Below the pieces are notes generated by a model that saw only the letters and a program-made list of their open reading frames with translations, was not told the DNA's origin and did no database searches. This document shows, piece after piece, positions 8,657-53,594 of a DNA stretch of 64,000 nucleotides (within the stretch, counting starts at the first letter, position 1; each line of letters begins with the position of its first letter). Source of the DNA: an archaeon (GTDB lineage: Archaea > Asgardarchaeota > Thorarchaeia > Thorarchaeales > Thorarchaeaceae); the NCBI GenBank assembly GCA_024276825.1, contig JAJRWI010000010.1:64001-128000 (forward strand), given 5' to 3'. Made by a program: the position numbers and the translations under genes.

Positions 8657-9211
8657 TTACATATGACCAGCCATTTTCTCCCTGAGCATTCGATATTTTT
8701 CGCGAAAGACACCCCATATCTTCTGTCTGGTTGAAGTGGGACCAACAGTGTGTAATGGGCATTGATCACCAAGAGGACATTCGTCCTTGAACCCTCCATA
8801 ATCATGTAGCGCCTCTGGCAGGACCTTATTGATCAGGTAAGCCTCTAGCTTTTTGGTGTCCTCTCCAGTTATCAAAGACCAGTCAATTGATTTGAATGGC
8901 TCTGTCTGGAGAGCTTTATTTACAGCCTCGAATACTACATCAGCCATTTCAGGAACATCAGCACTTAGGCCCACTACAATAGTATGATTGCCGGGAAAAG
9001 TCTTAGAGAATCGCATATCAGTGGATCCCATTTTAACAGCTTGAAGAAACAGACCCTCAGACAGTGTTGGGGGAATTGTTTCAATAGCAGAAAGAAGTCC
9101 TGTTAATAATTCAGGGTTTGCAAAAGCAGCCTTACAGAAGGTCCCATAACACTTACTATAAATAGGAAGTCCCGCCGTGGTATAAATCATTAGATACTCA
9201 AGTTTTGGCAT
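8657..9211 (-). CDS. Longin-like domain protein with a Cys/His-rich extension
   Basis: YLMIYTTAGLPIYSK...LLTGLLSAI matches the Asgard longin N-terminal pattern. Also carries CYGTFC and CPLGDQCPLH. Confidence 0.62.
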   Translation of the reverse strand: MPKLEYLMIYTTAGLPIYSKCYGTFCKAAFANPELLTGLLSAIETIPPTLSEGLFLQAVKMGSTDMRFSKTFPGNHTIVVGLSADVPEMADVVFEAVNKALQTEPFKSIDWSLITGEDTKKLEAYLINKVLPEALHDYGGFKDECPLGDQCPLHTVGPTSTRQKIWGVFREKYRMLREKMAGHM

Positions 9212-40370: not shown

Positions 40371-40904
40371 TCAGACAGAGGTCTGCCAACGTTGAAGTTT
40401 CTGGAACACTTGCATGATGACTTTTGCACGTGCAGCCTGTAGTTCGGCCTCTTCACGGGTGAGTTCACGAACCTGTGATGCAGGAACTCCAGAATTGAGA
40501 CTTCTTGGGGGAATTACAACATTTGCCGGCACGATACTTCCAGGGGTCAGCATGACGCCCTCGCCAAGTGTGGCCCCATCAAAAATAACACATCCCTCGC
40601 CAATATTCACATTATCACCGATGTATACACCATGAATGACAGATGCTGTACCAATGATGCTAAGGTCGCCAATTATAGCTGGGTTCTCCTCGGAATGTGC
40701 ATGAATCACAACGCTATCTTGAATGCATGTGCCTTCGCCAATCTTGACCGATGCAGCATCTCCACGGATGACCGCCCCTGGCCAGACACTGGCATTTGCA
40801 CTGATCTCCACATTACCAACAATTGTGGCCTGCGGACTGATATATGCCTTTGAATCAATCTTTGGACTTTTGTCACCAAACGGAAGAATTGGCAGTGAAT
40901 CCAC
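40371..40904 (-). CDS. Gamma-carbonic-anhydrase-like (YrdA/PaaY) hexapeptide protein
   Basis: SVWPGAVIRGD, IQD..VIH, hexapeptide repeats and G.PA..VREL. Confidence 0.88.
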   Translation of the reverse strand: MDSLPILPFGDKSPKIDSKAYISPQATIVGNVEISANASVWPGAVIRGDAASVKIGEGTCIQDSVVIHAHSEENPAIIGDLSIIGTASVIHGVYIGDNVNIGEGCVIFDGATLGEGVMLTPGSIVPANVVIPPRSLNSGVPASQVRELTREEAELQAARAKVIMQVFQKLQRWQTSV

Positions 40905-44235: not shown

Positions 44236-46170
44236 TTGATAAAGTTCCTGATTGGTCGCGGACATGATGGTCCTGCGCGCATCGGAAAACTTCAGAGAGA
44301 TGGCAGTGTAGTAAGCATCCCTGCATTGTTATCACAGGAGAGAGGAGAGAGTCAGCGACCGTATTATGTAGTTGTTGAGTCAGAGAGTCATAGGATATGG
44401 GAGCCAATACATTCTATGAAGTCCTTGCTGTTCTTGCGAGAAGACAACTGGATGGATGATGAACTATTCCTAATGCCTTCAATCCCTGCAATTGGTGCAC
44501 TTGGATCAGATGTCGCAGAGTTAGTGCTAGCAAGGCAATACGAGTTATTGGTCGACAAGGAGAAAACGACCCGAAATAATGCAATCATCAGGATCCCTTA
44601 TTCAATCAGGCCTGAACGAATTGGGAGAATTATGGACGATTTTAACAGGATTGGTGTGAACAAGGCAGCCTTCACCTTTGATGGAACCCTAGGCCAGAGG
44701 GATATGTCAAACATAGTACTGAGAAGCAAAGTTCCACCCAACTGGTTGATCATTGCCCTTGGAAGAATAGATGTACATATGATCCCAATACTCTACTATC
44801 TGGGATTTGATATCTTTGACATCGGACGAGCTCACGAGGCCGCTTCTGACGGAATAAGGGTCTGGGAGAATTCTGTTGAGAGCATGTTAGATAGCAAATA
44901 TCATAGATTCTGCTCCTGTTCTACCTGCTCGAAGATTGATAACTTTGACAATCTCACCAGGGATGAACTGACAGAAGCGCTTCTTCAGCACAATATTAAA
45001 AGATACTGTGAAGTTCTCTCAGAGAGCCAGATTGCCATGCGTAACGGAAGGTTAAGGTGGCTTGTGGAAACATCCACGCATGCCACACCCGCTCTGGCTG
45101 CGTTTATCAGACAAGCGAACAAAATACTATTCGATTTTCTTGAAGAGTATACACCAACTTCATATCAGAAGGAGCTGCCATTGATTGGCCCCGAGTCCTA
45201 CAATTCGCCTGCTGTAAAACGATTTCGTGACAGGGTTGCTAAGCGATATAGTCCGCCAAAACACAAGAGTGCTGTGCTTCTCTTACCATGTTCAGCAAGG
45301 AAACCCTACTCAGAATCAAGGTCGCACAAGCGATTCATATCATCAATTGAGAGAGCCATTGGGAGCGCAAGGTCATCACTTGCGGAGATCATTCTTACAT
45401 CGCCCCTTGGAGTTGTGCCTAGAGAGTTAGAACGTGTGTTTCCTGCCGCAAATTATGATATTCCTGTCACTGGGGACTGGGATGATGAGGAAATCAGTAT
45501 AGGAGCTAAAGCACTATGGACAATACTTACAAAGTATCCTGAAGATGCCCCAGTGATTGCACATGTGTCAGGCGGATACTACAAGATTGTAAAGAGAGCA
45601 GAGGGTGAAATGAAGCAGAGTATAATATACACAACACATGACTCTTCTGCGACCAGTCAGGATTCGCTCAATACACTCTCAGAGGTCCTGAAGCACATCA
45701 GGGACAAGGGGCTTCTTAAATCACAGAAACCAACAACAATCAGTGATACATTGAGCGCTGTTGCAGACTTTCAGTTTGGCAGTGGTGCAAGAGACCTTTT
45801 AGTACCAAAGGAAACGCGTTTCAAGGGAAAGATATACAACATGATAATGTGCTTCGATCAAAGGGCCCAGACTTGCAGTTTTTTGGGAAGCACTGGATCA
45901 ATAATTCTGACTCTTGAGGGTGGTCGGAGAATAAGGGAACTCGGGAGATATTGGGTCAGGTTTGAAGGTGATAGGATAAGGGGCAGTTCCATATTCGCAA
46001 TGGGCGTGAATCAAGCAGACCCCGAGATTCGTCCGGGAGATGAGGTTATAGTATTGGATCAGAATGATGATGTGATTGCTGTGGGCAGGAGCGAGATGTC
46101 AGGCAGGGAGATGTGTATGTTGGACAGAGGAATTGCTGTGGCTTTACGACATAAGAGGAAGGGGGACTAG
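44236..46170 (+). CDS. arcS: Archaeosine synthase alpha subunit (TGT-like, DUF5591, PUA)
   Basis: DGPARIG, LPCSARKPYSESRSH, TSPLGVVPRELE, YDIPVTGDW and a PUA domain. Confidence 0.9.
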   Translation: MIKFLIGRGHDGPARIGKLQRDGSVVSIPALLSQERGESQRPYYVVVESESHRIWEPIHSMKSLLFLREDNWMDDELFLMPSIPAIGALGSDVAELVLARQYELLVDKEKTTRNNAIIRIPYSIRPERIGRIMDDFNRIGVNKAAFTFDGTLGQRDMSNIVLRSKVPPNWLIIALGRIDVHMIPILYYLGFDIFDIGRAHEAASDGIRVWENSVESMLDSKYHRFCSCSTCSKIDNFDNLTRDELTEALLQHNIKRYCEVLSESQIAMRNGRLRWLVETSTHATPALAAFIRQANKILFDFLEEYTPTSYQKELPLIGPESYNSPAVKRFRDRVAKRYSPPKHKSAVLLLPCSARKPYSESRSHKRFISSIERAIGSARSSLAEIILTSPLGVVPRELERVFPAANYDIPVTGDWDDEEISIGAKALWTILTKYPEDAPVIAHVSGGYYKIVKRAEGEMKQSIIYTTHDSSATSQDSLNTLSEVLKHIRDKGLLKSQKPTTISDTLSAVADFQFGSGARDLLVPKETRFKGKIYNMIMCFDQRAQTCSFLGSTGSIILTLEGGRRIRELGRYWVRFEGDRIRGSSIFAMGVNQADPEIRPGDEVIVLDQNDDVIAVGRSEMSGREMCMLDRGIAVALRHKRKGD

Positions 46171-46173
46171 GCC

Positions 46174-47256
46174 ATGCCTTCGATCAATGAGAAGATTCAC
46201 GGGTTCATAAAGAGGGCTAATGTTCAGGCCAGAGGCAGCTCCATCAATAGACGATATAGACGTAATCTGAGCGCCCCATCTGCTGCATGGATTGCACCAT
46301 CTCTTATTGGAAGAACGCAGGCAAAGGCAATAGCCATAGTGCTTGCAACTATTGGATGTTCACATGCTCGGGAGGAAGACGGGGGTTGCACAATGTGCAG
46401 TTACCTCTTAGATGGCTCTGGTGTCATGCCAACAAATGTGGAACTCATCAAGCAGTTTGAGAGAGGATACACCAAAGCAAATAATGAGCAGAAACCCTTG
46501 TCGGTCAAAATCTATACCAGCGGAAGTTTCCTTGACTCGGATGAAGTTTCACCAGAGGTGAGGATGGAGATTTTGAGGAGAGTCGGTTCTGATGATAGAG
46601 TGACTGAAGTAATCATCGAGTCCAGACCCGAGTTCGTAACTGATAGGACCATGCAAGACTTGAGGGAAAGACTGAGCGATAGAAGAATAGAGATTGGCAT
46701 GGGGCTTGAGAGCGCAAATGATGTGATTCGAGAAGTATGCATCAACAAAGGGTTTACTCTGACTGAGTTTCAACATGCTCTGGAAACCGCAAGAAAGTAT
46801 GATATTGGAACACGAGCATATGTTCTTCTAAAGCCGCCGTTTCTCACTGAGAGCCAGTCCCAAGCTGATGCCTTACAGACAATCAAGACCTGTGCAGATA
46901 TTGGGGTGACTACAGTATCTGTGAACCCTGTTAATATTCAGAAGAACACACTTGTTGAGAAGCTATGGTCTAGGGGATCATATAGACCACCATGGCTCTG
47001 GACACTGATTTCGGTGCTAAGGCGAGCAAGACAGGAAATTGATGATTCAGTGAATATTGTCTGCGATCCGGTCGCTGCTGGAAAATCAAGGGGGGTTCAT
47101 AACTGTGGTAAGTGTGATGAGAGAGTTGTCAGGGCAATACGAGAGTTTTCACTGACACAGAATGAGGATGTTTTTGAGGGGCTTGATTGTGATTGTAAGG
47201 AGAAATGGCATCATACCTTACAACATGAAGACATATCATTTCTCATTCATCGGTAG
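46174..47256 (+). CDS. raSEA: Archaeosine biosynthesis radical SAM enzyme RaSEA
   Basis: GC......GGCTMC, KIYTSGSFLD, ESRPE, LLKPPFL, YRPPWLW and RG.HNCGKCD. Adjacent to arcS. Confidence 0.92.
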   Translation: MPSINEKIHGFIKRANVQARGSSINRRYRRNLSAPSAAWIAPSLIGRTQAKAIAIVLATIGCSHAREEDGGCTMCSYLLDGSGVMPTNVELIKQFERGYTKANNEQKPLSVKIYTSGSFLDSDEVSPEVRMEILRRVGSDDRVTEVIIESRPEFVTDRTMQDLRERLSDRRIEIGMGLESANDVIREVCINKGFTLTEFQHALETARKYDIGTRAYVLLKPPFLTESQSQADALQTIKTCADIGVTTVSVNPVNIQKNTLVEKLWSRGSYRPPWLWTLISVLRRARQEIDDSVNIVCDPVAAGKSRGVHNCGKCDERVVRAIREFSLTQNEDVFEGLDCDCKEKWHHTLQHEDISFLIHR

Positions 47257-47739: not shown

Positions 47740-47765
47740 GAGCTGGGGGGCAATTTCCCCAGCTC
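47740..47765. terminator. GC-rich hairpin between convergent genes
   Basis: GAGCTGGGG-N8-CCCCAGCTC. Confidence 0.5.
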
Positions 47766-47786: not shown

Positions 47787-49568
47787 TTAGTCAGATGTCA
47801 CTACAGGCTCACGACGGTCGTATTCACCCTCGCCCTGAATGGTGACTCTGATCTTCTTTTGGTCCCCAGGATTCATTCTTTCGAATATCCAGACTAAATC
47901 AGTGCCGTCATCAACAGGTTGCTGGCGTGGTTCAAGGTCTTCTGGTTCAATACCAACCACTTCAAATCCTCGAGGAATCCAATCGGAAACTTTGACATTC
48001 TCAACAGTCACTTCACCTTTATTCTCTATCACAAGAACCAAGATGTATTGGCCAGCTTCTGTTCCCTTGTTGATAGCCTTCTTGGCTGAGATTCGTCTCT
48101 TCTTGTAGATAATTCCAATCTTATGGCCGTCCTCAGCGCTGGCAACCTCGGTCTCGATGCCTGGAGGATAGGTGTTTGCAAAGCAGTGAATTGGTGAGGG
48201 ATATTCTTTCTCAGGACGACTCTTCCATGCCATTATCGAGTAGTTTATCCTTATGCTCTCACCAGGTTGAAGTTCACCAACAGAGTCCTTCAGGTCAGAG
48301 ATTTTGAATGTCAGTGTATGCGGGTGGTTGGGATCTTGGTCTTCGGGATCTATAGCAAATTCAAAATTGCCTGTATATTCCTCACCTCGAATGTATATCT
48401 CGATGTATTCTTTTGTAGGCGGCATGACATCATCAGGCAGTTTGTCAATTACTGTAATCTCGTTGATCTTTGCAGTGCCAGCGTTCCTTACTTCAATATT
48501 TACCTCTACTGGCGTTTTGTCAAAGCTGTTGACCTCTGGCGGGTCAAATGTCTTGGTATATTCTATCTTGTAGACGGGTATGGACTGGGCGGCCTTCTCA
48601 ATTGTGCCCAACACTCTCTTTGTGACAATGTTCACTGGGGTGTAGATGACCTCTTGTGAGCACTTGGGCTGGGACTTGCTCTCCATCTGAAATGAACTGG
48701 TCCATTCAGTACCCGGTCCCAGTTCTATTTCTGGGCTCTCATCAATTCGTTTCTCTTTTGTGCCAGACTCTTCAGACTCAACATAAACTTCAGCCTTGTC
48801 AAGGCGGATTACTAGATCACTCTCATTGGAACACTCCAGAGTGACCTCCCAGTTATTGGGTTCGTTCTCTGCGGAGTCAATGCCTGTGAGAAACTCGGTG
48901 AGGGCAGTCAGGTCAGGTGCCAGTAGTGAGCGCTGTTGGCCCTCAGCACGATATGTGACAACAACCTGTCCAGCATCTTTTTCCTCAGCATCTTCGACGT
49001 TTGCAGTGGCAGTAAACACGAGTTCATTCTCCTCATGGGGATAGATGACAAAGTCTTTCCATATGATCTGTCGGGTACCATCATCATATTCAGCTGTTCC
49101 TGACTTCACCTGCTCGATGGTCACATTGCTTAGTTCAGGAGGGACTGTTTTATTGAGAACGATGTTATCAATCTCGCCATCGGTTTCATTCTTTACACGA
49201 ATCGTCACTCGTAGAAGATTGTCTTTTCCAAAGCAATAAGCCCAATGAGGCTCCTCTGTGGTGACTTCACCGCAGGTGTCGTAGGTTTCCGACAGTGTCA
49301 GAATTGGCGATTCAACTGTCACCTTATACCTGTGTTGCCAAGAGCTGCCTGCATCAATCTCACCAGCCAGTAAGACATCCTCAGTGATGTCAGTCTGGTC
49401 CCGTGTGTCACTTAGTAGAACTCGCACATTCCAGACACGACATCTCTCAGAGGGGTTCTTGACAGTCAAGACACCAAAAGCCTCAATATTCTCCAGTTCA
49501 CTTAATTCGCCAAGCTGAGTTCTTTCAGTTTCTTCAATGTCAATTATGACCTTCTTTTGTTCACTCAA
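47787..49568 (-). CDS. Cytoplasmic multi-beta-sandwich protein; N-terminal mu-homology-domain-like region plus Ig/DUF11-like repeats
   Basis: No signal peptide or TM, and acidic. Repeated N.G...V.D.LP and W....l.PG strands. See findings for the MHD-like segments. Confidence 0.6.
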   Translation of the reverse strand: MSEQKKVIIDIEETERTQLGELSELENIEAFGVLTVKNPSERCRVWNVRVLLSDTRDQTDITEDVLLAGEIDAGSSWQHRYKVTVESPILTLSETYDTCGEVTTEEPHWAYCFGKDNLLRVTIRVKNETDGEIDNIVLNKTVPPELSNVTIEQVKSGTAEYDDGTRQIIWKDFVIYPHEENELVFTATANVEDAEEKDAGQVVVTYRAEGQQRSLLAPDLTALTEFLTGIDSAENEPNNWEVTLECSNESDLVIRLDKAEVYVESEESGTKEKRIDESPEIELGPGTEWTSSFQMESKSQPKCSQEVIYTPVNIVTKRVLGTIEKAAQSIPVYKIEYTKTFDPPEVNSFDKTPVEVNIEVRNAGTAKINEITVIDKLPDDVMPPTKEYIEIYIRGEEYTGNFEFAIDPEDQDPNHPHTLTFKISDLKDSVGELQPGESIRINYSIMAWKSRPEKEYPSPIHCFANTYPPGIETEVASAEDGHKIGIIYKKRRISAKKAINKGTEAGQYILVLVIENKGEVTVENVKVSDWIPRGFEVVGIEPEDLEPRQQPVDDGTDLVWIFERMNPGDQKKIRVTIQGEGEYDRREPVVTSD

Positions 49569-49587
49569 TTTTCTTCATCCTCCCATC

Positions 49588-50343
49588 CTAGTCTGACTCG
49601 TTAGGTCCGTTTTGGGAAATTGTAAATCTAAACTCATGTCCAGCGGCCCAATCGGTTTCAAGAACTTGACCGGGCTCCATCACTAATGGGGTTATACCAT
49701 GACCGAATTGACTGATATACTTTGAGAATCGCTTTAACTGCTCATGGTCTTCCCATCTCATTGGAATTGCAAGTTTTGGATGTGCATCAATACATATACT
49801 GACCGCATCTCTGACTGGAAACACACCATCGCCCCCAATAGGAGTAATCAGTATGTGAGATTCCAGTGCTCCAAATGGACCTCTTATCTCCGAGTCTCCC
49901 ACATAGGACACCTTCATCTTGCCCATCTCTATATGGAGGCCATAGTTCTCAATCTTTTCATCATTTGCAGGATCTGTGCGTTTCAGAATATACGGTGTGA
50001 GTTTCATTCCAGGAATCTCATAGGGGATCTCATTCTCTAGTGTGTGAAGAAGCCATGGTTTTGCACCTTGTGACTTGACTTTTTCGATTGTGGACTCATC
50101 ACCAAGTACCCAGGCCTTTGCATTGATTGCAATCTGTGCGGCATTGCCCACAGCATCATCAAGGTGGTTTGTTACTGCAATTATCCTAACATCAAGGTCG
50201 TCAGGCACAACAGCCTCGCCATCCCAGATTCCCGGATTCAGAAGCAGTGAGGTCTCTTCTGTTGACAACATGAACGATGTCTTTCCAAAGTACTTTATCC
50301 TAAGCAAGTTATCACATCCAAACGTCCCGTTTTGGTCACCCAC
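49588..50343 (-). CDS. Metallo-beta-lactamase-fold protein (UPF0173-like) lacking metal-binding His residues
   Basis: IKYFGKTSF, VTNHLDDAVG, YVGDS, PIGG and AIPMRW align to the UPF0173 layout with the ligands substituted. Confidence 0.7.
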   Translation of the reverse strand: MGDQNGTFGCDNLLRIKYFGKTSFMLSTEETSLLLNPGIWDGEAVVPDDLDVRIIAVTNHLDDAVGNAAQIAINAKAWVLGDESTIEKVKSQGAKPWLLHTLENEIPYEIPGMKLTPYILKRTDPANDEKIENYGLHIEMGKMKVSYVGDSEIRGPFGALESHILITPIGGDGVFPVRDAVSICIDAHPKLAIPMRWEDHEQLKRFSKYISQFGHGITPLVMEPGQVLETDWAAGHEFRFTISQNGPNESD

Positions 50344-50497: not shown

Positions 50498-51793
50498 ATG
50501 CTAGAAAAGATCCTGACCTTAGAATTCAGAAAGTTAGTCACATCAGTGATTGATGACATAAAGAACTATCATAATCGCGTCACCGAGAAGGAGTTTGAGA
50601 AAGACAAGAGGAGGATCTTAAACGAGCTGTTGACAGAGATTGATGTATATCCGCCAGATATTGTGTTAAATGAGGACTATCTTGTCGCTGCAATAGATGG
50701 TTCTGGTAGCGAGAACTTTTTCCTTCTAGATGATATTAGAGTTCATTTAATCAGCACTGCCACAGTAGTACTCAACACAAACACAAAATTTGGGGACCCT
50801 TTCAGACCAATGAGTAACGATGAGGTTTCAAGGGTTATGGGAAAGGATCAGCCCAATCTTGACTTACTATGGCATTTGGGCGTTCGGGAGGACGCGGCTG
50901 AAAAACTTGCAGAGATGTTTGAACTGCTTTATCCCATCGAGGATATTCCCAGCTTGGTCTTACCATTCTTTCAGGATGTAATTCAAAAAACGATTGACAA
51001 ACTGGAGGATTTGCGGGACACTGAGTTTGGGCAGTATATTGACGAGTTTCATAAAATGGTGACCTTGATATCAAGAGGTAATCTATTAACCACCAGTGCG
51101 GCCCACGATGAGTTGCGAAAAACAGCGGAGTATGCTGCTGCAAAACGGCTTCTAATTAGTGACATCAAGCCCCGCTTTCTACTACTTGATGGTGCTATGA
51201 GTGTATTCATTCATTTTGCCAGACAATATCCCTCGTTGCCAAGTGGATTCATGCTACGAGATATTTGCAAAACAGCTCGTGAGAAGGGTACAATTCTTTG
51301 TGCAGTCAGTAAGAATCACACAATTCCATTTGCTCATAGAATTGCAAAGATGGCAGAAGAAAAATTCGGGAAGAACAAAAAGTGGTTCTGTCTGCTGCCA
51401 TCAAACGATGATCCTGGGGGAGGCCTACACATTTACAGTAATAGGACATATATCCCCCCAAGACTAGCAGTACCCTATTTGTTCAGCTTCTCAGGCGATA
51501 ACCGCCCATCAAGAATCGACTTTGACAGAATATGGTGGTTGGAAAATATCTTTGTTGAGGGTGACCCAGAGTCAACAAGGGAGAATGAGATTGCATTGTT
51601 TCGTGAACTAGAGTTCATGTCAAGAGATGCCAGATGGTATGGATATCCTGTGCCCTTGGCATTGGCTCACACGGAATGCAAGATCAGTTATGAGGACCTG
51701 AGCATTGCTAAAGACATACTGTCAGATGTTCTGCATGAGTCTGACCTAGACCCAAGATTCGCAAAGTCCCTCAGGAGCGATTTTAACATGTAA
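50498..51793 (+). CDS. nurA: NurA 5'-3' nuclease
   Basis: AAIDGS, LLLDG, AVSK and GYPVPLALAH motifs; operon context. Confidence 0.88.
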   Translation: MLEKILTLEFRKLVTSVIDDIKNYHNRVTEKEFEKDKRRILNELLTEIDVYPPDIVLNEDYLVAAIDGSGSENFFLLDDIRVHLISTATVVLNTNTKFGDPFRPMSNDEVSRVMGKDQPNLDLLWHLGVREDAAEKLAEMFELLYPIEDIPSLVLPFFQDVIQKTIDKLEDLRDTEFGQYIDEFHKMVTLISRGNLLTTSAAHDELRKTAEYAAAKRLLISDIKPRFLLLDGAMSVFIHFARQYPSLPSGFMLRDICKTAREKGTILCAVSKNHTIPFAHRIAKMAEEKFGKNKKWFCLLPSNDDPGGGLHIYSNRTYIPPRLAVPYLFSFSGDNRPSRIDFDRIWWLENIFVEGDPESTRENEIALFRELEFMSRDARWYGYPVPLALAHTECKISYEDLSIAKDILSDVLHESDLDPRFAKSLRSDFNM

Positions 51794-51812
51794 TAGGGAG
51801 GTATGAAGTGAG

Positions 51813-53594
51813 ATGCTTAATAAAGAAAAATTGGGAAGTCTGTTTGGAAGAATAGGAATGGGAGATCAATCCTCATTATGGATTATGGGTAGTAATGAAG
51901 ACATCTGTGTCGGTGAAATATTTGCGATATACTCAAAGCGCGATAACCATGAGAGGGTGTTCTTTTACAGAGTATTGAAACTTCATAATTATCTACGAAG
52001 AGTAGATGATCTCTCGCAAGTTGCTGGCACGCTCATGGTCGAGGGTGATGCATATCTCTCGGGAATCGATAGAAACAAGTTGATTGAACTTGGCGGAAAG
52101 ATGTTGGGCTATGCTGAGCTGGTAGAGAATGAAAAGGGAGAGAGAATATGGAGATTCAAATCACCGAGAAGAATACCAGAACATCTGGCCTTCGTGTACC
52201 GTCCTGTTAAAGGAGAATCGGATGTTATCTATTGTGATATGCTTCATAGTCAGATTGGCGGAGAGATATATATTGGCGACTTTCAGATTGGTGAAGACAC
52301 CCTTGATGTACCTGTCAATATCGAGTCAAAGTTTTTACCTATGCATGTTGGAATATTCGGCTCGACTGGAGCTGGAAAGAGTAATCTCATGATGGTACTC
52401 ATCAAGTCAATGATTGACAATAACCTCAAAGTGATACGGGGCCAGTCGACCAGTAATCTTGTATCAGCATTTTGCATTGACCCCCATGACGAGTTTGCAA
52501 CAGGGGTCGATACATATGGTATTCATGACATCGTGAAGGAGATGGATGAAAACACAAGAAAAGAACTCTTTGGCGAGTTTTATTATTTGACATCTCATCT
52601 GAGTGCAACACCTCGCGAAATCAAGAGATATGCAAAAGAAATCCGAATTCTCTGGAAAGAGATAATTCCACAGGACCTGTACTCCATTATGTCATTCACT
52701 CCTCAAATGTCAGCATTCATTGAAGCAATGTATCATGCTCACGGAGAAGACTGGATTGAAGCAATCATCCAATTGGATGAAAATGATGATTCTGTTGATA
52801 GGTCTAATCTTGGAAGTATGAGGGCAGTCAAGAGAAGACTCAAATTTCTAGAGAACTCTTCAATCTTTGTTGATTCTGGTCAATCAATCTTGCCTGAGAT
52901 ATACTTTGCAATGGAAACTGGCAAGATATTGGTTGTGAACACTAGTCTGATGAGTGACCGCGAGCAGTTTCTCCTCACCACTATTGTAACAAGAACCATC
53001 TCCGATTTAAGACGGGCTGCTAAAAGCAGTGGTCTGATTAGGGATTTTGAAGCTCAATGTCGTGTTAGGCTACCAATATCATTCTACAACAAAATAGAGA
53101 GGAAGGCAAAGGCGTTCTATGGCAAGGGAGGAACAACAAATGAACACGAGGTCAGGGATCCTAGAGACTTGCCAATAGTCATGATCACTGTTGAAGAGGC
53201 ACCATCAATACTCAATCCGACATTGATGGAAGGACAGTCCGTGTTCAAGGACATATCCCGACAGGGAAGAAAGTTCAATATGGGACTCTTAGTGGTGAGC
53301 CAACAGGTCAGTGTTCTTGATAATGTGATACTCAGTCAGATGAACACTGAAATCAACCTAAGACTGGGGAATGAGAGAGAGATTCAGGCATGCATAGACA
53401 ATGCAAGCGTGAACATCTCAGGATTCGAGGACGAGTTTAGAGTCATGAACCGTGGTGAGGCCTTGCTCACAGCATCATATAGGGACATGCCAATTCCTGT
53501 CAGAATACCGCTGTTCGATGATGTCTTCAAGAGAAACCGATCAAACTACAAGAGAATGGCCTCCTCCAGAAAACGAGATAAGCATATCATTTGA
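51813..53594 (+). CDS. herA: HerA helicase/translocase
   Basis: HVGIFGSTGAGKSN, DPHDE, VEEA and RQGRKF.....SQ. Confidence 0.92.
   Translation: MLNKEKLGSLFGRIGMGDQSSLWIMGSNEDICVGEIFAIYSKRDNHERVFFYRVLKLHNYLRRVDDLSQVAGTLMVEGDAYLSGIDRNKLIELGGKMLGYAELVENEKGERIWRFKSPRRIPEHLAFVYRPVKGESDVIYCDMLHSQIGGEIYIGDFQIGEDTLDVPVNIESKFLPMHVGIFGSTGAGKSNLMMVLIKSMIDNNLKVIRGQSTSNLVSAFCIDPHDEFATGVDTYGIHDIVKEMDENTRKELFGEFYYLTSHLSATPREIKRYAKEIRILWKEIIPQDLYSIMSFTPQMSAFIEAMYHAHGEDWIEAIIQLDENDDSVDRSNLGSMRAVKRRLKFLENSSIFVDSGQSILPEIYFAMETGKILVVNTSLMSDREQFLLTTIVTRTISDLRRAAKSSGLIRDFEAQCRVRLPISFYNKIERKAKAFYGKGGTTNEHEVRDPRDLPIVMITVEEAPSILNPTLMEGQSVFKDISRQGRKFNMGLLVVSQQVSVLDNVILSQMNTEINLRLGNEREIQACIDNASVNISGFEDEFRVMNRGEALLTASYRDMPIPVRIPLFDDVFKRNRSNYKRMASSRKRDKHII

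Follow-up and report, generated by a model that had tools for sequence, protein, structure and literature searches.

The stretch analysed here, which we call the window, comprises 64,000 nucleotides of a Thorarchaeaceae genome (assembly GCA_024276825.1, contig JAJRWI010000010.1, positions 64,001 to 128,000). One of its genes encodes P0001, a 593-residue protein which, judging from its predicted structure, very probably contains a true and complete mu-homology domain (MHD), the domain found in the medium (mu) subunits of the adaptor protein (AP) complexes, in delta-COP and in muniscins. The reading that we favor, and to which we give somewhat better than even chances, is that P0001 is a cytoplasmic scaffold of five beta-sandwiches with a genuine MHD, co-transcribed with a decayed partner of the metallo-beta-lactamase (MBL) fold and bound to it as a heterodimer through the fourth domain, with the MHD left free as a platform. 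An earlier reading, made from the letters without database searches and referred to below as the sequence-only reading, had proposed a cargo adaptor of a proto-coat.

The P0001 gene is present in a single copy in its genome. The protein falls into five sandwich units, given in the last five lines of the following list together with the gene and the MHD that the first three units make up.

47787..49568, reverse strand: P0001 gene (593-residue MHD-CLIPPER protein), TTG start, TAA stop at 47787-47789
48588..49568, reverse strand: predicted MHD, residues 1-327 (N-terminal part of subdomain A, subdomain B and return segment of subdomain A)
49254..49568, reverse strand: N-terminal part of MHD subdomain A, residues 1-105; conserved E13, G32, N38, W46, Y81 and E94
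48924..49241, reverse strand: MHD subdomain B, residues 110-215, an immunoglobulin (Ig) domain of DUF11/CLIPPER type; conserved N127, K140, G157, W170 and G200
48588..48914, reverse strand: MHD return segment, residues 219-327; conserved E234, P237, W240, N248, S250, W289 and P301
48102..48578, reverse strand: domain 4, residues 331-489, a beta-sandwich that resembles pilins (CnaA/B) or cohesins; the MBL-fold partner is predicted to dock here
47790..48098, reverse strand: domain 5, residues 491-593, a DUF11/CLIPPER Ig domain

P0001 is cytoplasmic in character. It is acidic (isoelectric point 4.5; 115 Asp and Glu versus 63 Lys and Arg), and its AlphaFold2 model is all-beta. The maximal hydropathy over 19 residues is just 0.86, so it has no membrane segment. 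An in-frame TGA lies three codons upstream of the TTG start, so that no leader or signal peptide can be hidden there, and the orthologues share the start residue and align over 100% of the length. The sequence-only reading had described a 593-residue, acidic, all-beta protein devoid of signal peptide and membrane segment, and had worried about a missed upstream signal peptide; the description was borne out and the TGA disposes of the worry.

To place the N-terminal region, a family profile of 86 such regions was run with HMMER against all sequences in the Protein Data Bank (PDB). The top matches were AP-3 mu (E 0.0043), the delta-COP MHD (E 0.0045) and AP-2 mu. Positions 4-197 of the profile are collinear with residues 7-208 of the delta-COP MHD (4o8q; 194 positions), and residues 115-220 of P0001 align to AP-3 mu. 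Both N-terminal segments that had been singled out by eye as MHD-like thus align with MHD sequences. Against the Pfam model of the domain (Adap_comp_sub, PF00928; cut-off 31.6 bits), Thorarchaeota orthologues score 24-27 bits and the distant relatives P0131 and P0154 reach 34.9 and 31.2 bits; one distant relative covers profile positions 12-234 of 259. A PF00928 search of the whole genome returned nothing, as did the same search of control genomes, and therefore says only that the Pfam model misses this copy. The sequence evidence for an MHD is weak but consistent.

The evidence from predicted structure is strong. An AlphaFold2 model of P0001 built from 119 relatives has a mean pLDDT of 93.9 and a pTM of 0.78. 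In Foldseek comparisons, MHDs gave target-normalised template modelling (TM) scores of 0.56-0.69, versus 0.04-0.38 for the generic multi-Ig matches listed alongside them. The MHD targets align as one body, nearly entire, to their last residue, which indicates that in the model the C-terminal strands do come back to subdomain A. The predicted protein thus has the MHD topology, with B inserted in A and the C-terminal strands back in A, and not the independent serial DUF11/CARDB domains that the sequence-only reading had named as the outcome that would overturn it. A model of a Thorarchaeota cluster in the ESM Atlas superposes on the AlphaFold2 model with a TM score of 0.93.

DUF11, renamed CLIPPER (PF01345; PDB 9ifr), has been described as an isopeptide-bearing stalk domain of surface adhesins (bioRxiv 10.1101/2025.04.25.650565). 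Pfam finds DUF11 in three stretches of P0001 (49 bits, cut-off 24.6) and otherwise only relatives of DUF11, among them DUF7507 and DUF7619; TIGR01451 scores 33.8 bits (cut-off 24). By the following comparisons, MHD subdomain B is a DUF11/CLIPPER domain inserted in the larger sandwich A. In relatives, the residues of subdomain B are matched by DUF11, above its cut-off, and by Adap_comp_sub alike. Aligned by hhalign, subdomain B matches domain 5 with a probability of 97.6% (E 2.9e-12) and domain 4 with 94.4%; the N-terminal family profile also picks up P0001's own domain 5, and subdomain B aligns with residues 134-240 of AP-3 mu. A 3026-residue protein, P0185, contains 18 tandem repeats that each match the subdomain B region (residues 116-205), and these repeats are therefore further evidence for subdomain B as a DUF11-type repeat unit. 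The family is most strongly conserved at the residue cluster in the return segment, where P301 is invariant. About 100 of the model residues 3-327 are unaligned with mu2, some 70 of them, by our arithmetic, in the return segment. Among the larger relatives (P0205, P0219, P0228, P0248 and P0258; 1000-1350 residues), some carry an insertion of about 400 to 750 residues between the N-terminal part of A and B, and the MHD seems tolerant of a large insert exactly at this junction.

For the C-terminal region, a model of residues 328-593 (pLDDT 95.2) was used in a fold search of 48,161 PDB representatives. The top of the list is taken by pilin, cohesin and CLIPPER domains. The likeness of domain 4 is to pilin and cohesin sandwiches, that of domain 5 to DUF11 domains and MHD subdomain B. 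The sequence-only reading had likened the downstream sandwiches to adaptin ears. We found no ear domain among the 50 matches listed; a weak profile match of residues 505-576 to the gamma1-adaptin ear (1gyv, E 0.019) and faint matches of two relatives to Alpha_adaptinC2 (PF02883) do not make the likeness specific. Domain 4 has a conserved K339 (86%) and a conserved D/E375. An isopeptide bond in this domain was considered and set aside as unlikely, the candidate Asn465 being present in just 28 of 79 diverse rows. Two relatives, P0189 and P0133 (Harpocratesius), end in a zinc ribbon, of the form CxxC...CxxC in P0189, which also has a long proline-rich N-terminus with PPAPP-type repeats.

The family is widespread. 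Of the 201 genomes sampled from the phylum, the N-terminal profile detected the gene in 167, among them 72 of the 85 of high quality, and in 54 of 59 genera; within the same 201 genomes it was not found in some families with small genomes. Relatives could be named from Thorarchaeota, Ranarchaeia, Jordarchaeales, Helarchaeota and Lokiarchaeia (Harpocratesius), and one partial relative is labelled Thermoplasmata. In the ESM Atlas, a cluster from Thermoplasmatota matches P0001 structurally over residues 1-520 (TM 0.73), and the architecture probably extends beyond Asgard archaea.

The family is not new. The sequence-only reading had left it as a question whether it had been described, and the answer is yes: Eme et al. 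2023 (Nature 618:992, PMC10307638) reported Asgard matches to the mu C-terminal domain, unfused to a longin-type domain, and their Supplementary Table 3 lists 44 Adap_comp_sub (PF00928) candidates. These include Thorarchaeota orthologues with N-termini near-identical to that of P0001, plus a Jordarchaeia member. The matches in that study are at the level of Pfam only, with a 'sparse distribution', and hits to all five AP domains were found somewhere in Asgard archaea. Our literature searches found no paper that tests the fold of the family or names a partner. Added here are the fold test, the near-universal presence, the DUF11 identity of subdomain B, the probable presence in Thermoplasmatota and the MBL-fold partner.

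The partner, P0272, belongs to the UPF0173 family; it has the MBL fold, is soluble and carries no leader. It matches Lactamase_B_3 (PF13483) with 45.8 bits (cut-off 24), and the profile of its family matches TM_1162 over the full length (E 2.4e-30). Its gene ends 19 nt before the P0001 gene on the same strand, and the gap contains a ribosome-binding site.

49588..50343, reverse strand: UPF0173 MBL-fold gene (P0272), upstream of and co-oriented with the P0001 gene; likely true start TTG at 50307, as in the 231-residue orthologues
49578..49584, reverse strand: Shine-Dalgarno-like GGGAGGA, read from the sequence, 10 nt before the P0001 TTG and within the 19-nt intergenic gap
47740..47765, reverse strand: terminator-like GC-rich hairpin (stem of 9 bp) with a U-rich run after it, 22 nt past the P0001 stop

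The hairpin (-19.4 kcal/mol, z -3.1) sits between convergent genes. Co-transcription of the two genes is indicated by the 19-nt gap together with this terminator-like hairpin; on these features they form a two-gene operon. The gene order was counted from two profile searches, for the MHD and for the MBL-fold protein, over the same 201 genomes, a match with an E-value of at most 1e-70 being taken as an MBL orthologue. In every genome that has this orthologue, 51 in all, it lies directly upstream of the MHD gene and is co-oriented with it; 40 of these genomes belong to the window's own family and the other 11 to three further families. The MBL gene is directly upstream and co-oriented also in contigs of Ranarchaeia and Jordarchaeales whose other neighbours differ. 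Neither the MHD gene nor the MBL orthologue is present in four 94-99% complete genomes of the window's own family. The only break in the pairing is in family f21, where three genomes of 1.4-2.0 Mb (G044, G053 and G061; L014-L016) encode a relative of the MBL-fold protein (E about 1e-50) with its motifs intact.

The metal site of the partner has decayed in part of the family. P0272 reads TNHLDD at HxHxDH, with FGK and IPMRW in place of FGH and IPMH. Copies from Jordarchaeales, f7, f19 and f21 retain the motifs (GH, HxHxDH, HLGD, IPMH); those from Thorarchaeota, f2 and Ranarchaeia have lost them. Proteins of the P0272 type are nonetheless 55-73% identical across Thorarchaeota. Conservation despite the lost ligands therefore fits a non-catalytic binding role, and the partner looks like a pseudoenzyme kept as a binding subunit.

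We predicted the complex of P0001 with the MBL-fold partner and obtained an ipSAE of 0.69 (runs of 0.70, 0.69 and 0.69), versus 0.00 for the best of three controls; among solved complexes 58 of 80 attain that score, and among mismatched pairs 2 of 110, counts that calibrate only roughly. The runs share at least 92% of their contacts, with a partner pLDDT of at least 84. The interface is formed by residues 343, 350-353, 382-388, 411, 444 and 446 of domain 4 and by residues 177-186 and 205-215 of the partner, the latter including the near-invariant F206, Y209, Q212 and F213. Of the 13 domain-4 residues, ten show little or no variation in Thorarchaeota (the same in 41-42 of 42 rows), and the mean identity of the interface residues there is 0.83 versus 0.68 for the whole domain. 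In distant relatives, which mostly lack the partner, the same residues are no better conserved than average. The model supports, without proving, binding through domain 4.

Taken together, P0001 is predicted to consist of a DUF11-type subdomain B set within sandwich A to make the MHD, then a pilin- or cohesin-like domain and then a DUF11 domain. Its gene would be co-transcribed with the upstream UPF0173 gene, whose product has lost its metal ligands in Thorarchaeota, and a stable heterodimer of the two products, joined through domain 4, is the likeliest outcome. With the partner docked there, the MHD would remain available as a platform for binding proteins or peptides. We infer that P0001 binds the MBL-fold protein and that it serves as a targeting or scaffolding subunit for this ancestrally active hydrolase, rather than as part of a membrane coat.

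Several points weigh against this reading. With respect to the MHD, P0001 itself does not match PF00928, even at E-values of 1-10, the profile E-values against PDB sequences are marginal, and all of the structural evidence is prediction. With respect to the partner, the f21 genomes that keep an MBL relative yielded no MHD gene at E 1e-5, and the Promethearchaeota and other relatives examined show no link to an MBL gene. As only some members of the family have the link, whatever the MHD protein did ancestrally cannot have required the MBL-fold partner. The ipSAE is the model's own confidence, obtained with our own alignments. Finally, a 'hydrolase-targeting scaffold' names no pathway.

The best-placed competitor is the proto-coat adaptor of the sequence-only reading, in which the MHD would bind sorting signals in the tails of membrane proteins together with free longin- or sigma-like proteins and solenoid proteins, as an unfused ancestor of AP and COPI. 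We regard it as unlikely. The full-length MHD fold, the near-universal presence in the Asgard sample and the published hits to all five AP domains speak for it. So does one relative that has, at a distance of two genes, a gene for an Arf/Rag-like GTPase in the opposite orientation; this link was not seen in the other five loci examined and was dropped. The cargo pocket speaks against it. We take the YxxPhi pocket of mu2 to be D176, K203, W421 and R423 and, from the N-terminal structural register, D10/E13 of P0001 to be equivalent to mu2 D176/E179 and K37 to K203. The D10/E13 correspondence is backed by the AP-3 mu alignment, itself weak. E13 is nearly invariant among relatives. P0001 has D10, a residue shared by no more than 51 of 119 relatives, and K37 is seen in 19 of the 119; no Trp or Arg is conserved in residues 302-327, the last strands, where mu2 has W421 and R423. 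Because D10, K37 and a Trp or Arg in the last strand are unconserved, the canonical YxxPhi site does not appear to be a feature of the family, nor the canonical YxxPhi signal the ligand of its MHD. The MHDs of delta-COP and the muniscins are likewise not known to have a YxxPhi site and bind other motifs, and peptide binding by the MHD as such may be compatible with the missing site.

The other parts of a coat are no easier to find. The genome gave no match to Clat_adaptor_s (PF01217) by Pfam, a search that more divergent homologues could escape, and its best and sole match to Adaptin_N (PF01602) reached 13 bits (cut-off 37) with a model that also hits control bacteria. P0001 has no fused N-terminal longin, as the MHD begins at residue 1 and an in-frame stop precedes the start by three codons. 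The free longin-like gene that the sequence-only reading had noted in the window did not hold up either: the ORF at 8657-9211 has no Pfam match and lies 38 kb away, unlinked to the P0001 gene. Nothing that links P0001 to a coat was found in its neighbours or in the Clat_adaptor_s and Adaptin_N searches of the genome. The neighbours are housekeeping genes (archaeosine synthesis, NurA/HerA), the acidic protein is unlike the basic membrane-binding face of mu2, and the architecture is probably shared by Thermoplasmatota, a group with no known reputation for trafficking genes. With the pocket unconserved, no sigma match, a 13-bit Adaptin_N match, an acidic protein and an MBL-fold protein as the sole conserved neighbour, we find the cargo-adaptor proposal unsupported and prefer a scaffold bound to the MBL-fold partner.

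A second alternative holds that the MHD likeness is a by-product of serial Ig sandwiches in an ordinary DUF11/CLIPPER repeat protein that shares no ancestry with eukaryotic MHDs. The mutual homology of subdomain B, domain 4 and domain 5 as DUF11-type domains would be expected if this were so, and generic multi-Ig proteins head the Foldseek list when it is ranked by E-value. The failure of P0001 to match PF00928 points the same way, as does the fact that both structure models come from machine learning trained on solved MHDs. The alignment of whole MHDs as one body and the separation of the target-normalised scores make this quite improbable in our view. A cell-surface or exported stalk protein that leaves the cell by a route independent of a signal peptide is the least credible alternative and can be set aside almost entirely, for although the DUF11, DUF7507 and DUF7619 matches, the typical place of CLIPPER domains in fibrillar adhesin stalks and the likeness of domain 4 to Gram-positive pilins would suit it, P0001 has no signal peptide or membrane segment and a stop three codons before its start, 119 of 119 aligned relatives are leaderless, some relatives show features usual in cytosolic proteins (a zinc ribbon at the C-terminus or a proline-rich N-terminus), the product of the other operon gene is likewise soluble and without a leader, and the candidate isopeptide Asn of domain 4 is not conserved.

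The operon is surrounded by genes for archaeosine synthesis, a helicase gene and a repair cluster of NurA/HerA type. Just downstream, on the forward strand at 44236-47256, lie ArcS (alpha subunit) and the radical SAM protein RaSEA, a pair that is syntenic in another Thorarchaeota genome. Diverging from the MBL gene are a NurA-like gene with a weak Pfam match and a HerA helicase gene (50498-53594 and downstream, forward strand); in a related Thorarchaeota genome the NurA/HerA genes are followed by Mre11- and Rad50-type genes. The convergent downstream gene, of 117 residues, is common to another Thorarchaeota genome. As a conserved downstream partner it was rejected, since it is not homologous to the downstream genes of Ranarchaeia or Jordarchaeales. 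In the Ranarchaeia locus a 98-residue Roadblock/LC7 gene, unrelated to the 117-residue gene, is convergent to the MHD gene (L003:2993-3289, reverse strand). Elsewhere in the window, a 177-residue hexapeptide-repeat protein (40371-40904, reverse strand) matches Dynactin subunit 5 (PF21711) with 42 bits versus a cut-off of 40, and is maybe a generic left-handed beta-helix.

The origin of eukaryotic vesicle coats is debated, and MHD matches in Asgard archaea have been cited as 'building blocks' of AP and COPI. The DUF11 identity of subdomain B suggests a source of the MHD fold. It is conceivable, and we advance it tentatively as having clearly less than an even chance, that the MHD did not begin as a coat module but arose in archaea by insertion of a DUF11/CLIPPER Ig domain into another beta-sandwich of a multi-Ig scaffold in the cytosol, one that had a UPF0173 metallo-hydrolase as its working partner and is now found in Asgard archaea and Thermoplasmatota, and that eukaryotes later fused this existing interaction platform to longin or F-BAR domains. 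If so, the Thorarchaeota MHD protein and its inactive hydrolase-like partner would be a surviving relative of the pre-coat state. The use of the family as a marker of trafficking is tempered, because its conserved context is hydrolase-like and its architecture probably occurs also outside Asgard archaea. The analysis yields a concrete protein pair with named interface residues, which can be expressed and tested.

Among known systems, the AP medium subunits (AP-2 mu2, 5wrk, 1bxx and 2pr9; mu1, mu3 and mu4) differ from P0001 in several respects. P0001 has no N-terminal longin, its Tyr-pocket positions are unconserved, it is acidic rather than having basic lipid-binding patches, two extra sandwiches follow its MHD, and its predicted partner is an MBL-fold protein, not the adaptin trunks. 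A second comparison is with delta-COP (4o8q) and the muniscins SGIP1/FCHo (5awu), whose MHDs do not read YxxPhi. Their MHD is C-terminal to a longin or to F-BAR/APA regions and is found at membranes, whereas that of P0001 is N-terminal and has no tie to a membrane. The CLIPPER stalks of adhesins are secreted; P0001 is cytoplasmic in character, and its candidate Lys-Asn pair is unconserved. The UPF0173 hydrolases (TM_1162, PDB 3x2z; Igni_1254, PDB 6hrg) match the partner at the level of the family. They differ from the window's copy, which has TNHLDD at HxHxDH and has lost the other His ligands; the copies from Jordarchaeales and from three other Asgard families keep the motifs of the hydrolases.

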